Of a DNA stretch of 64,000 bases, positions 11,087-20,700 are shown in pieces. Below the pieces are notes generated by a model, which worked only from the letters and a program-made list of their open reading frames with translations, was not told where the DNA came from and made no database searches. Every line of letters begins with the position of its first letter. The stretch's first letter is position 1. Position numbers and translations under genes: made by a program. The stretch lies in the sequence record MW650886.1; one strand, given 5' to 3'. This DNA comes from Escherichia phage vB_EcoM-ZQ1.

Positions 11087-11893
11087 ATGAATTTACCATC
11101 ATTGCCCAGAACAGAAAAGACATATAAAAGCGACTTTTGGCCTACTGTGATCAAATATCGCGCCTTTACTGCAGGGCAACAAACTTTATTACTTCAGGTG
11201 TCAGATCCGCAAACGCCGATTGAAGAACGCGCGGCCATGATGGAGAGTCTCTTTAGCGAGTGTGTAAATGCAGGCGCACCTTTCAGTAAACTGCCAATCG
11301 GCGTTGTTGAGGAAGTGTTCATCCGCATGCGCATGATCTCCATCGGTGAATTGATGAAGATTCGCTATAAATGCAATAATCAGATTGAAGAAACGATCGA
11401 TCTGGGAGATGGTCAAGAAAAGCACCAGATGGTTCCCTGTGAGCAGGAACTGACTCTACCTATCCCGTTGAACAACGTCAAATGCATTGCTCAGGACGGC
11501 TTCCGGGAGACGTTTGACCTGCCAGGTGGATATCACCTCAAGATGCGCCAACCTTCCTTCTCGGACGCTACGGCACTGTCTGATGCTGCAAGCGTTGAGA
11601 TGATGCTGGCCACCTTTATCGACTGCCTGTACGATGATGACGGTCAGGTGTGGAAGGTTGAGAATCCTGAAGAAATCGGAATCACTCCGGAAGAGGCTAC
11701 TGAGCGCCGCCGTGTGAAAGAAGCGTTTGTTGAGTGGGTGAAGGATAACATCGAATCAGATGTTATTGACAGCATTACGAAGAACTTCTTCCACAAAATA
11801 CCGCGCATCCACTACAAGAGTTCGATCAAGTGTCCGAAATGTGGTAAGGATCACAAAATCGAATTCAATAGTATTAATGAAATTTTCATTTAA
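11087..11893 (+). CDS. hypothetical protein with C-terminal zinc ribbon, immediately upstream of the gp5-like spike gene
   Basis: ATG MNLPSLPRTEK preceded by GGAG; C-terminal CPKCGKDHK; the listed ORF starts earlier on a non-ATG codon. Confidence 0.5.
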   Translation: MNLPSLPRTEKTYKSDFWPTVIKYRAFTAGQQTLLLQVSDPQTPIEERAAMMESLFSECVNAGAPFSKLPIGVVEEVFIRMRMISIGELMKIRYKCNNQIEETIDLGDGQEKHQMVPCEQELTLPIPLNNVKCIAQDGFRETFDLPGGYHLKMRQPSFSDATALSDAASVEMMLATFIDCLYDDDGQVWKVENPEEIGITPEEATERRRVKEAFVEWVKDNIESDVIDSITKNFFHKIPRIHYKSSIKCPKCGKDHKIEFNSINEIFI

Positions 11894-12042
11894 TGTTTGA
11901 AACTGATTTATTATCCTACTTCGTGATGTGTGATGAATTGAAGTTACACGGCTATAGCATATTTGAAATCAACGAGTCGATGCCATGGCATCTTGACTTG
12001 TTAACCGAAGCCCTCAAGGTCAGGTTGTCTAAGAAACAGTAA
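11893..12042 (+). CDS. small hypothetical ORF (49 aa)
   Basis: TAATG-coupled to the previous gene (MFETDLLSYFVMCDELKLHGYSIFEINESMPWHLDLLTEALKVRLSKKQ), followed directly by an intrinsic terminator; below the ORF-track size cutoff. Confidence 0.25.
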   Translation: MFETDLLSYFVMCDELKLHGYSIFEINESMPWHLDLLTEALKVRLSKKQ

Positions 12043-12066
12043 TCCCGCTTCGGCGGGATTTTTATT
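12042..12066 (+). terminator. intrinsic terminator
   Basis: ATCCCGC-TTCG-GCGGGAT hairpin followed by TTTTTATT. Confidence 0.6.
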
Positions 12067-12112
12067 GTCTTAACTGCAAAATAGGTTAACACGCGTTCTC
12101 TTTACCTGAAAT

Positions 12113-12121
12113 TGCTATAAT
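12113..12121 (+). promoter_or_regulatory. possible extended -10 promoter (TGcTATAAT)
   Basis: TGCTATAAT in the long non-coding stretch upstream of the gp5-like gene; no clear -35. Confidence 0.25.
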
Positions 12122-12277
12122 GGGCTTGTTCCCGAGTCATTTGTTGGTGTTTGTCTGTTTTGAATCAGATTGTCAGTAAAATACCATTTTTCAAGGAGTG
12201 TTCTGGGGTGTACAGTTATTGCCTCGCCCTTATGCCTCCATGGCATTGGAATGGTGCTGCCCGCATAGGGCGGTTTG

Positions 12278-12296
12278 ATGAGCGAAGCGAATAGGA
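12278..12296. repeat. 19-mer shared with 54425..54443 in inverse orientation
   Basis: ATGAGCGAAGCGAATAGGA is the exact reverse complement of TCCTATTCGCTTCGCTCAT; each copy is flanked by ATAAAACAAATA. Confidence 0.55.
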
Positions 12297-12363
12297 TCGA
12301 ATAAAACAAATAAAATGAACGGAAGCAGAGCTTCCTATAGTATATAAGGCAAAATCAGCTGCG

Positions 12364-12371
12364 CATAAATA
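12364..12371 (+). promoter_or_regulatory. late-promoter-like motif CATAAATA
   Basis: 7/8 match to TATAAATA, 34 nt upstream of the gp5-like ATG; same spacing as the motif at 6251. Confidence 0.4.
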
Positions 12372-12405
12372 CCTTCAAATCCTTGTTTGACAACCGGAAC
12401 TCAAT

Positions 12406-14016
12406 ATGTTAGACAATATGAGATGGTTTTACGGCACCGTTGAAGATGTCAACGATCCAGACCAAAACGGGCGAGTTGCTGTTCGCATATATGGCGTACA
12501 CACCGACGATCCCGTCCTCCTGCCTACGGACAAACTCCCATGGGCGAAGGTACTGATGCCTGCTTCAAACGCCTCCTCTGCTGGTTTAGGTTGGTCTCCA
12601 ACGGGTATCATTCCTGGTACTGAGGTTATGGGGTTCGCCCTTGACGAAGCATACCAGAATTTACGCATCACCTGGACTTGGACTGGTTCAAGTCCTACTG
12701 ATGGTGCCGACACAAACCCACTGGCTCTCGGGCAGGTCGTTCAATCTGTGGAACGTCAGGCGTACAACGCCGTCACTGACGTTCCTGTGAAACAAGAAGA
12801 CGAACCACAACCAGATCCACAACCACCTGTTGGCGGGTATGATCCAGAGAAGTGGATGACAATCGCTCGTGGCGAATTGGGTATCAAGGAGTACGCTGGA
12901 AAGTTCAACAACAACCCGCGCATTATAGAATATCACAAGACAACCTCCCTTGGTGCTTCTGAAGATGAAGTGTCGTGGTGTGCGGCGTTCGTGGGTTGGG
13001 TTATGATACAGGCTGGATACACGTCTACACGCTCCGCTCTTGCCCGATCTTACCTTACATGGGGCACTCCACTGTCAGCACCACAATATGGCGCTATCGT
13101 AGTCTTCCGGCGTGGTAACAACCCTACATTTGGACACGTAGCGTTTGTGCAGAAGTTCGATGCAAACTATGTCTGGTGTATTGGTGGCAACCAATCCGAT
13201 TCAGTGAAGGTTAGTCGTTTCAGACGTTCTTCGGTCTTGGGATATCGTTGGCCTGGTCCTGCTAACACAGCCACAGCCGTGCCTGCGCAGCAGAATGGTA
13301 AATGGTCAGAACCTATCCCAGATCGTACTCCAAAGGAACAACCGACTCCGGCTCCTACTGGGCGAGTACAGGATATTGACAACACTGGAGAAACCATGGT
13401 TCCGGCTGCGGGTGGCTCCAAATACCCGTACAATAACGTCATGGTGTCCCGAGCTGGGCATATTATGGAAGTGGATGACACCCCTGGTGGTGAACGTCTT
13501 CATTGGATGCATAAGTCTGGGTCTTACAAGCAAATGTTGCCGGATGGTGATGTGGTCAACAAGTCCGTCAAAGACCACTATGACCTGACGATGTTCAACA
13601 AGCGTTATTATGTCGGCGGGGACCACAACCTGACGGTCAAAGGAACTGAAGTTCAGCGCAAGACAGGTGAGGTCTATCATTTGCATTCCAACAACTACTC
13701 AAATGTGGTTGCGGGCACAGCGCTGATGAAATTCAGTGACCTAGCGGAAATGCAAGCGCAGAATATTCTGCGCATTATCTGCGAGACTCTGGAGGTCGGC
13801 GGGACATTGAAGGTTCCTAAGATTCTAACGACTGAGATCATCGCTGACAAACTGACTGTCGCTCAGACGATCAATGGTAACATCATATATGCCGAAGGTG
13901 CTGGTCGCGCTTCTTCTCTGTCAGGTGCAACCCCTGCATCCCCTACGGGTCCGGGTGAGATTGACATCAAGGCAGAATTAAAAGACAATGGTGGTAATTT
14001 CGGCACCAAAGAGTAA
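12406..14016 (+). CDS. baseplate central spike protein (T4 gp5-like N-terminal OB domain) with cysteine peptidase (CHAP/NlpC-P60-like) domain
   Basis: WFYGTVEDVNDPDQNGRVAVRIYGVHTDDPVLLPTDKLPWAKVLMP matches the T4 gp5 N-terminus; internal SWCAAFVGWV...GHVAFVQ gives the Cys/His peptidase signature; Gly/Ser-rich C-terminus. Confidence 0.8.
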   Translation: MLDNMRWFYGTVEDVNDPDQNGRVAVRIYGVHTDDPVLLPTDKLPWAKVLMPASNASSAGLGWSPTGIIPGTEVMGFALDEAYQNLRITWTWTGSSPTDGADTNPLALGQVVQSVERQAYNAVTDVPVKQEDEPQPDPQPPVGGYDPEKWMTIARGELGIKEYAGKFNNNPRIIEYHKTTSLGASEDEVSWCAAFVGWVMIQAGYTSTRSALARSYLTWGTPLSAPQYGAIVVFRRGNNPTFGHVAFVQKFDANYVWCIGGNQSDSVKVSRFRRSSVLGYRWPGPANTATAVPAQQNGKWSEPIPDRTPKEQPTPAPTGRVQDIDNTGETMVPAAGGSKYPYNNVMVSRAGHIMEVDDTPGGERLHWMHKSGSYKQMLPDGDVVNKSVKDHYDLTMFNKRYYVGGDHNLTVKGTEVQRKTGEVYHLHSNNYSNVVAGTALMKFSDLAEMQAQNILRIICETLEVGGTLKVPKILTTEIIADKLTVAQTINGNIIYAEGAGRASSLSGATPASPTGPGEIDIKAELKDNGGNFGTKE

Positions 14017-14089: not shown

Positions 14090-14470
14090 ATGAAAGAGTA
14101 TAAAGATGTCGATCTGAAGTTCGGCATGCATCCAGTGACCAAAGATGTCACCATGAAATCAGGTGTGTATGCTGTCTTACAATCCGTGCGGAATATCGTC
14201 ATGTCTTCAGTCGGGGACTGGCCCACTTATCCTGGGATCGGCGCGGGGCTTTATGGGCTGCTGGGTGAAAACACGACACCGACTATCCAGGTAGATGTGA
14301 AGAACAAAGTAGAGGACGCCATCGCCCTGTATGAACCCAGAGCAGAGGTAGAAGAAGTCACGGTGAGTCTGTCAGAGGATTACCACTCTCTGGGCGTGAC
14401 CATCACATTCTATGTGGTCAACAATCCAGATCCAATAACAGACACCGTGTGGTTGAAAAGGACGAATTAG
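14090..14470 (+). CDS. baseplate wedge protein (T4 gp25 / GPW family)
   Basis: 126 aa; YEPR and NPDPI motifs and size match gp25; directly downstream of the gp5-like gene. Confidence 0.7.
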   Translation: MKEYKDVDLKFGMHPVTKDVTMKSGVYAVLQSVRNIVMSSVGDWPTYPGIGAGLYGLLGENTTPTIQVDVKNKVEDAIALYEPRAEVEEVTVSLSEDYHSLGVTITFYVVNNPDPITDTVWLKRTN

Positions 14471-14557
14471 AATTTCTTCCTGAATGCCGGAGCCACGACT
14501 AACATGAAGTGGGGACTGCCAGCTGCATGCCCAGCTCTTTGTAATCTTGCATGAGGA

Positions 14558-15019
14558 CTACTCCGCCAGGGTGATCACAACCATATTTAAGACTGTGTCG
14601 ATAGCTCGGCCTGTTTCCTCTTCATGGAGGGTTTCGGCGCGGAGGTGCACGTCGGTGATGAAATTGTCGATGTGCATTGAAGTCAGGTACGGGCGGTGCT
14701 GGGATAATGGACGGTTGGCCATCACATAATTGCGCAGTGTGTTGAAGTCCTGATGAGAGCATTCTGTGGTATCGATACGGAGGAAGCGTTCGTTGTGTCT
14801 TGTCTTCAACTCAGTTGCTTTCCCGAGGTAGACCAGAGGTCCATTGCGACCGATACGGAACATGACATCAACAACAGACTTGAAGATTTCGCGTTCAATC
14901 AGTGCGGTGGGTGACCAGCAGATCTCTTCTTTGTCGTCGGCGTACAGGGTGTCGATCACCAGAGGAAGCTGAATGTAACCGAAGTTGTGCAGTGGGTTGG
15001 TAAGTACCTTGTTTGTCAT
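14558..15019 (-). CDS. hypothetical protein (possible GIY-YIG endonuclease, EndoII-like)
   Basis: 153 aa; PLVYLGKATELKTRHNE resembles T4 EndoII ELVYIGKTKNLRKR; weak call; carries the conserved leader/start motif. Confidence 0.3.
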   Translation of the reverse strand: MTNKVLTNPLHNFGYIQLPLVIDTLYADDKEEICWSPTALIEREIFKSVVDVMFRIGRNGPLVYLGKATELKTRHNERFLRIDTTECSHQDFNTLRNYVMANRPLSQHRPYLTSMHIDNFITDVHLRAETLHEEETGRAIDTVLNMVVITLAE

Positions 15020-19843: not shown

Positions 19844-20638
19844 TTAACTGAAACTCTTGTATGCTGCTGCGAGCTTCTTGTCGTACTGGTTCTTGGCATA
19901 CGCCGGACCATTATAGCGCCGTGCAAATTCAGACCAGTTCTTGTCCTTCAGAGCCTTCCAGAGCTTGGCGTCAGCCTTGATGAACTTCACGAATGCCATC
20001 AAATGAGCACGTTCTCCTGTCAGGAAGTCGTTGAACATCTCCTTGGCGTTGGCATATCCACAGACCTGGCAGTTGAATCCCATGATCTGGAAGAGACCGT
20101 AAGAGGCGCTCTCGTACGCACAATCCTCATCGATGTTGATGGCCGCATGAAGTCGATCCAACTCCGCGTCGCCTCCCGTGTACCCGCCTGCGGAAGGACT
20201 GACCAACGTCGGGTACATATGTCCCATGGCATTCGCCCGAGCCTGTCCGAACTTCGCCATCAGCTTCTTATACATGATGTGACGCTCAAATAATGTCTTG
20301 ATCTTACCTGACTTGGTGAAGCCCGTGCCGCGCGACTCAACCTGATTCACCGCCTTGACAGAGGCAAGGTCAACACCCAGATCATTAGCAGCATCAATCA
20401 GGTCTGACTCAGTTAAATGATCCTGATGGGCGTCTCCGGCGTTGCGAATAGCATAGGAGGTCTTTGGACCCACGATACCATCAATGACAAGCCCCGCACC
20501 CGCCTGAACAGTCTTGACGGCGTTCTCTGTTGCCTTACCAAAGATGCCGTCAGCGACGAGGGTGAAGCCGATTTTGTTGAGGCTATCCTGAAGTGCCTTC
20601 ACTTCAGTACCACGGTTGCCAAATTTTAGAATGGCCAT
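19844..20638 (-). CDS. endolysin (N-terminal peptidoglycan-binding domain, C-terminal muramidase-like domain)
   Basis: PG_binding_1-like N-terminus (GNRGTEVKALQDSLNKIGF...DGIFGKATENAVK); listed start is TTG, re-set to ATG MAILKFG with GGAGG SD. Confidence 0.55.
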   Translation of the reverse strand: MAILKFGNRGTEVKALQDSLNKIGFTLVADGIFGKATENAVKTVQAGAGLVIDGIVGPKTSYAIRNAGDAHQDHLTESDLIDAANDLGVDLASVKAVNQVESRGTGFTKSGKIKTLFERHIMYKKLMAKFGQARANAMGHMYPTLVSPSAGGYTGGDAELDRLHAAINIDEDCAYESASYGLFQIMGFNCQVCGYANAKEMFNDFLTGERAHLMAFVKFIKADAKLWKALKDKNWSEFARRYNGPAYAKNQYDKKLAAAYKSFS

Positions 20639-20700
20639 AAGAAAATACCTCCACAATGAATGTAGAGGTATTTAAAGTGAAAGTGAACTGACTTTGAGGA

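Follow-up and report, generated by a model that had tools for sequence, protein, structure and literature searches.

A gp5-type baseplate spike with a predicted TIGR02594/CHAP cysteine hydrolase in place of the lysozyme domain in Escherichia phage vB_EcoM-ZQ1

The central spike of bacteriophage T4, gp5, is a tail-associated lysozyme, and the gene at 12406..14016 (plus strand) of Escherichia phage vB_EcoM-ZQ1 raises the question of which enzyme a homologous spike carries when its central part does not resemble that lysozyme. The stretch analyzed here (the window) comprises 64,000 nucleotides of sequence record MW650886.1, and the gene is complete in it, running from an ATG start codon through 536 amino acids to a stop codon. 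An original prediction, made from the sequence without database searches, had proposed that a cysteine peptidase of the CHAP/NlpC-P60 type takes the place of the T4 lysozyme domain in this protein, and that peptide rather than glycan bonds are cleaved during entry. On the basis of our own analysis of domain identities, catalytic-residue conservation, fold, genomic context and conservation across the family, we conclude that the gene very probably encodes the central cell-puncturing spike, built on the T4 gp5 chassis, with a TIGR02594/CHAP cysteine hydrolase (Cys192-His244-Asn262) replacing the lysozyme.

The central enzymatic domain (amino acids 150–283, 12853..13254, plus strand) is predicted to be a TIGR02594/CHAP domain, that is, a papain-like cysteine peptidoglycan hydrolase. 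NCBIfam TIGR02594, one of the families originally suggested for checking the prediction, matches amino acids 150–282 with 129.6 bits (cutoff 70.55, E 8.7e-38) and is covered end to end (profile positions 2–132 of 132), while Pfam CHAP (PF05257, clan CL0125) matches amino acids 187–262 with 43.1 bits (cutoff 26, profile positions 4–81 of 81), such that both families are found above their curated cutoffs. Together with the Gp5_OB match described below, these scores are far beyond chance. The AlphaFold2 (AF2) model of amino acids 140–300, which has a mean predicted local distance difference test score (pLDDT) of 86.5 and a predicted template modeling score (pTM) of 0.83, displays a papain-like α+β fold, and the only significant matches to the modeled domain in a Foldseek search against the PDB were NlpC/P60 and CHAP enzymes, including MepS, the C. 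difficile autolysins Acd33800 and Acd24020, LysK CHAPK, LysGH15 and PlyC. Fold neighbors of the modeled domain were scored at 15.3 for Acd24020, 14.4 for LytE, 13.3 for the diffocin “Hub-Hydrolase” CD1368, 13.2 for both CwlO and MepS, 10.7 for Tae3, 10.6 for the LysGH15 CHAP domain and 9.2 for Tse1. The family and fold matches are thus those expected from the CHAP/NlpC-P60 peptidase originally proposed.

Both motifs on which that proposal was built are present, with SWCAAFVGWV at amino acids 190–199 and GHVAFVQ at amino acids 243–249, and we followed their conservation in an alignment of 26 diverse TIGR02594 domains that are 31–73% identical to the query (A1), as well as in an alignment of full-length homologues (A2). 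W191, C192 and F195 are invariant in A1, as are G243, H244 and F247, and the four residues G260, G261, N262 and Q263 of a GGNQ motif; H244 is also nearly invariant in A2. Cys192 (motif SWCAAF, codon 12979..12981, plus strand) is the predicted nucleophile and starts the helix at 53–63 of the model (in domain numbering), and His244 (motif GHVAF, codon 13135..13137, plus strand) is the predicted catalytic base, located on the strand at 104–112. Asn262-Gln263 (codons 13189..13194, plus strand) are candidates for the third, polar residue of the triad and for the oxyanion hole, a role suggested by analogy to the Cys-His-polar triad that is general in this clan of NlpC/P60 and CHAP enzymes. Read from the alignments, the invariant residues correspond to the Cys-His-polar signature that characterizes papain-like hydrolases of the NlpC/P60 and CHAP type. 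Furthermore, conservation across 23 Ackermannviridae-type homologues is highest in the enzymatic domain (mean identity to the query 0.85, compared to 0.72 for the OB domain and 0.77 for the start of the β-helix) and lowest at the C-terminus (0.63–0.67), which argues for a functional enzyme.

The chassis that carries this domain is recognizably that of T4 gp5. The N-terminal gp5-type OB domain (amino acids 1–105, 12406..12720, plus strand), presumably the part that docks onto gp27 and the hub, is supported by Pfam, phmmer and AF2: Pfam Gp5_OB (PF06714) matches amino acids 39–96 with 48.1 bits (gathering cutoff 25), phmmer aligns amino acids 3–93 with residues 6–101 of the T4 gp5 structures 1K28 and 1PDL, and the model places strands at 6–14, 23–29, 46–49, 73–78 and 86–92. 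For identity counts, and as a positive control for the Pfam scans, we used the T4-type gp5 of phage FL34, to which the first 50 residues are identical at 25 of 53 positions (47%), with a gap of 5 residues, and amino acids 1–95 at 41 of 97 (42%). The first 50 residues had been described as nearly superimposable on the T4 gp5 OB domain, and while the homology is clear, these counts do not support near-identity. On the other side of the enzyme, amino acids 337–440 (13414..13725, plus strand) are homologous to the first part of the C-terminal triple-stranded β-helix of T4 gp5: phmmer aligns amino acids 338–432 with T4 gp5 385–477, 35 of 97 positions (36%) are identical to residues 386–480 of the T4-type gp5, and AF2 predicts strands at 343–386. 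The solved T4 gp5 structures (1K28, 1PDL, 5IV5 and others) align only to amino acids 3–93 and 338–432, and the 240 residues between amino acids 93 and 338 are without a sequence match to them; the PDB sequence search returned T4-type gp5 entries only, over the flanks only, and no solved Ackermannviridae spike. The flanks thus align to T4 gp5 and the center never does, in agreement with the proposed domain swap, which earlier work had reported for the CBA120 orthologue (PMC3184105). In both T4 gp5 and the window spike (575 and 536 amino acids, respectively), an enzymatic module is placed between two linkers in a protein with a central-spike role and a baseplate gene neighborhood, but this module has the T4-lysozyme fold in the former and is a predicted cysteine NlpC/P60-CHAP hydrolase in the latter.

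The linkers on both sides of the enzymatic domain are low-complexity, proline-rich and predicted to be disordered. Linker 1 (amino acids 106–149, 12721..12852, plus strand) ends in the Pro/Asp/Glu/Gln-rich segment KQEDEPQPDPQPPVGG and gave no family match in the profile scans, and linker 2 (amino acids 284–336, 13255..13413, plus strand) is Pro/Thr/Ala-rich, its equivalence to the linker of T4 gp5 with the maturation cleavage site (Ser351/Ala352) being one of position only. Both assignments draw on the sequence and on pLDDT values, which fall below 50 at amino acids 94–139 and 290–341 in the full-length AF2 monomer (mean pLDDT 58, and hence informative only on linker disorder and on the cores of the OB and CHAP domains). 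The divergent C-terminal part (amino acids 441–536, 13726..14013, plus strand), presumably the distal spike or tip end, is modeled with low confidence in this monomer, and the Pfam scan of this part gave no match, including to the Gp5_C octapeptide repeats and Gp5_trimer_C, which are features of T4-type gp5. We note that the orthologues from Serratia, Erwinia and Dickeya-type Ackermannviridae (P0014–P0020, P0022 and P0023) are 605–617 amino acids long, with an extra 70–80 amino acids at the C-terminus that the window protein does not have and in which Pfam finds no domain.

Taking T4 gp5 as a guide, a plausible course of events can be outlined, in which the trimer geometry, the timing of action and the bond specificity are those that we infer. 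The T4 gp5 trimer is reportedly located at the tail-tube tip, its enzymatic domains lying at the periphery, as Kanamaru et al. are said to have described in 2002. By analogy, the OB domain would dock on the hub, the C-terminal part would form a β-helical needle, and the trimeric spike, likewise placed at the tail-tube tip, would carry three copies of the enzyme at its periphery. Sheath contraction would then push the spike through the outer membrane, and, once in the periplasm, the enzyme would open the peptidoglycan locally through a thiol-mediated cut at a stem-peptide or cross-link amide bond, allowing the tail tube to reach the inner membrane, while lysis at the end of infection would be left to a separate muramidase endolysin. 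The closest structural neighbors of the modeled domain are DL- and DD-endopeptidases, and the most likely activity would be that of a γ-D-Glu-mDAP or mDAP-D-Ala endopeptidase (mDAP being meso-diaminopimelic acid). Cleavage of a peptide bond, rather than of glycan, is likely, as the original prediction had implied.

Several alternatives need to be weighed against this reading, one being that implied by the common database label “tail lysozyme”, namely, that a divergent lysozyme or glycosidase occupies the middle of the protein. The Pfam and NCBIfam scans of the spike protein gave no lysozyme or glycoside hydrolase family, including Phage_lysozyme (PF00959), whereas the same Pfam scan of the FL34 protein recovered Gp5_OB, Phage_lysozyme, Gp5_C and Gp5_trimer_C, so that the missing lysozyme call in the window spike is meaningful. 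In addition, a local alignment of amino acids 150–283 to the T4-type gp5 reaches a score of only 28, and neither a lysozyme nor a glycosidase was among the matches in the fold searches with the modeled central domain. A lysozyme or glycosidase fold in the middle region is the finding that, according to the original prediction, would have spoken against it, and we reject this assignment as effectively refuted, its residual probability being negligible. Alternatively, the domain could be CHAP-like yet catalytically inactive, a collar on the spike with no role beyond structure or peptidoglycan binding. Our literature searches found no activity data, and the lysozyme activity of T4 gp5 is dispensable under laboratory conditions, such that selection on catalysis might be weak. 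However, catalytic residues are normally lost when an enzyme decays, whereas the Cys, the His and the GGNQ motif do not vary among phage and bacterial homologues of only 31–55% identity, and lie in the part of the protein that is most conserved, and we thus consider an inactive domain to be very improbable.

A third alternative leaves the fold and the role in entry as they are in the reading we prefer, and differs in the scissile bond alone: the central domain could be an N-acetylmuramoyl-L-alanine amidase, which cuts the lactyl-L-Ala amide and strips the stem peptides from the glycan. CHAP and NlpC/P60 enzymes comprise MurNAc-L-Ala amidases (where MurNAc is N-acetylmuramic acid) as well as endopeptidases, and the fold alone gives no bond specificity; with endopeptidases as the closest structural neighbors, we regard an amidase as unlikely, but as the most credible of these three alternatives. 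This breadth of the clan also counts against our reading of a spike with a cysteine hydrolase active in entry, as do a number of further points. Literature searches on TIGR02594 and Ackermannviridae spike enzymes found no biochemical or structural study, and no enzymatic assay for this protein or for any TIGR02594 member. As the T4 gp5 lysozyme can be dispensed with in the laboratory, the need for a spike enzyme in entry is not assured either. Furthermore, with the last ~100 amino acids lacking the T4 Gp5_C repeats and poorly modeled as a monomer, any shape of the needle tip is conjectural, and a phmmer search with a T4-type gp5.4 query found no gp5.4/PAAR-like tip protein among the window open reading frames (ORFs) of at least 60 amino acids, although the low sensitivity of this search means that it is not evidence of absence. 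Going beyond the cysteine hydrolase itself, we would put forward only tentatively that the TIGR02594 spike domain has a bond specificity undocumented for a virion lysin of a Gram-negative tailed phage, for instance that of a γ-D-Glu-mDAP DL-endopeptidase, and that its exchange for the T4 lysozyme might bring a measurable advantage in entry on hosts with modified, lysozyme-resistant (e.g., O-acetylated) glycan strands. If this were true, the Ackermannviridae spikes would be the first cysteine-peptidase puncturing devices of Gram-negative myophages to be defined biochemically. The spike domain is a predicted peptidoglycan hydrolase directed at Gram-negative cells, and a possible enzybiotic candidate.

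The spike is far from confined to this phage. The DNA of the window is 98–99% identical to that of the E. coli phages LHE287, A221, PC3 and AV101, and 92% identical to that of Salmonella phage P46FS4 (classed as Ackermannviridae; Aglimvirinae; Agtrevirus), which identifies its source, by nucleotide identity, as an Agtrevirus-type (ViI-like) Ackermannviridae phage. The spike protein is 100% identical to its counterpart in phage PC3, is matched by PHROG 430 (E 1.6e-154), and has homologues at ≥80% coverage in at least 278 phage records, from phages of Salmonella, Klebsiella, Escherichia, Dickeya, Serratia and Shigella. Its architecture was described previously by Kutter et al. in 2011 (Virol J 8:430, PMC3184105), under the heading “Baseplate Lysozyme”, for the CBA120 orthologue, with the CHAP/TIGR02594 domain mapped to amino acids 150–282 and the flanks shared with T4 gp5 to amino acids 3–109 and 334–437, and these published boundaries are nearly identical to those of the window spike. 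In the same year, Hooton et al. (PMC3220722) listed the ΦSH19 orthologue as “Gp5 OB family & CHAP domain (CL0125)”, and among database names, one cluster member is a “TIGR02594 family protein” at NCBI and the phage A221 gene a “cell wall-associated hydrolase”. For incorporation into the virion we rely on the literature, in which the ViI orthologue was found in the virion proteome (cited in PMC3184105) and the “tail associated lysozyme” of phage Sajous1 accounted for 20 spectra when virions were analyzed by mass spectrometry (PMC10892097). CBA120, ViI/Vi01 and ΦSH19 share with the window an orthologue of ~84% amino acid identity (P0004 from Vi01, and P0005), as well as the gene order gp26-like, gp5-like, gp25-like, nrdB, nrdA, and differ only in genus (Kuttervirus rather than Agtrevirus-type) and by ~16% divergence, with the architecture being the same. 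The TIGR02594/CHAP spike is, thus, a family-wide feature of the Ackermannviridae that was already described in 2011, and is not new as a discovery, and “tail lysozyme”, although widespread as a database label, is a misnomer throughout the family.

When other carriers of the OB domain are also taken into account, the cargo of such spikes proves to be varied. Among metagenomic Gp5_OB proteins, one carries a type VI secretion system (T6SS) VgrG3-like_C module (P0030), one an NlpC_P60/CHAP module near its C-terminus (P0027), and one is without an enzyme (P0031). We take this to mean that the enzymatic module of the spike is generally exchangeable, the gp5 “warhead” being a lysozyme, TIGR02594/CHAP, NlpC_P60, VgrG3-like_C or no enzyme at all. 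A further metagenomic protein (P0061) has a VgrG3-like_C/GH46 module and no Pfam OB call. Shorter forms also occur in phages: Rhizobium phage RHph_N34 (Pootjesviridae, L004 2570–3337) encodes an OB+TIGR02594 protein of 255 amino acids, and gp207 of Vibrio phage ICP1 (238 amino acids, L005 2252–2968) has a TIGR02594 domain, both without a β-helix and with TIGR02594 domains that are 36–42% identical, and these phages may either lack a needle or encode it in a separate protein.

The closest non-phage relatives of the enzyme are bacterial TIGR02594 proteins with PG_binding_1, LysM or GH108 modules, which are up to 57% identical over amino acids 150–283 (P0026), in agreement with Kutter et al. (PMC3184105), who remarked on an apparently bacterial origin of the enzyme. 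These proteins have the same catalytic domain as the window spike, but it is either free-standing or fused to cell-wall-binding domains, and not embedded in a spike. TIGR02594 domains have also been described in VgrG-associated T6SS effectors of Stenotrophomonas, proposed to degrade peptidoglycan upon delivery by a contractile machine (PMC13055248). Papain-like hydrolases are also borne on the hubs of contractile systems directed at Gram-positive bacteria. In these, represented by the diffocin Hub-Hydrolase CD1368 (8V3W) and the C51 domain of the S. aureus phage phi812 hub (9EUF/9EUM), the carrier differs, with no gp5 OB and β-helix chassis, the targets are Gram-positive, and no sequence relation is detectable beyond the catalytic fold.

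The genomic surroundings are those of a baseplate gene. Upstream lies a gp26-like baseplate hub subunit (11087..11893, plus strand; Pfam T4_baseplate E 2.6e-46, PHROG 150 “baseplate hub”), labeled T4-like gp26 in AV101 and P46FS4, and downstream a gp25-like baseplate wedge subunit (14090..14470, plus strand; Pfam GPW_gp25 33.7 bits, PHROG 261/43), labeled T4-like gp25 in relatives; the three genes form a short plus-strand island amid minus-strand replication genes. A separate endolysin with PG_binding_1 (E 1.5e-14) and N-acetylmuramidase (Muramidase PF11860, E 4.6e-59) domains is encoded at 19844..20656 (minus strand), and its counterpart is annotated as an endolysin in P46FS4; the spike enzyme is therefore not the one that acts in lysis, and would be that of entry. 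Kutter et al. 2011 identified no lysis enzyme in CBA120 (PMC3184105), a gap that has since been closed by annotation. The start of this endolysin differs between sources, with the ORF list giving a TTG codon and 270 amino acids, and relatives being annotated with 795 nucleotides and 264 amino acids.

Between the gp26-like gene and the spike, a strong terminator-like hairpin, AATCCCGC-TTCG-GCGGGATT, is found at 12041–12060, followed by T-rich sequence, and the ~340 nucleotides from there to the spike start codon (within 12041–12405 of the window) are without an annotated gene, as is the same gap in AV101 and P46FS4. The Rfam scan of the whole window gave no matches. A T4-like late promoter, CATAAATAC at 12364–12372, was considered but is left unassigned, as such motifs show no enrichment in the window (3 found compared to 1.2 expected, with 13 of 100 shuffles reaching at least 3); according to the CBA120 paper, the late promoter of the ViI family had not been identified (PMC3184105). 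Finally, beyond the gp25-like gene, 262 bp that are present in AV101 (L001 10513–10774) are missing from the window at the junction 14510–14512, within a small minus-strand hypothetical ORF that lies between the gp25-like gene and an ORF of 153 amino acids at 14558..15019. LHE287 is colinear with the window at this site, and most other relatives carry the extra segment.
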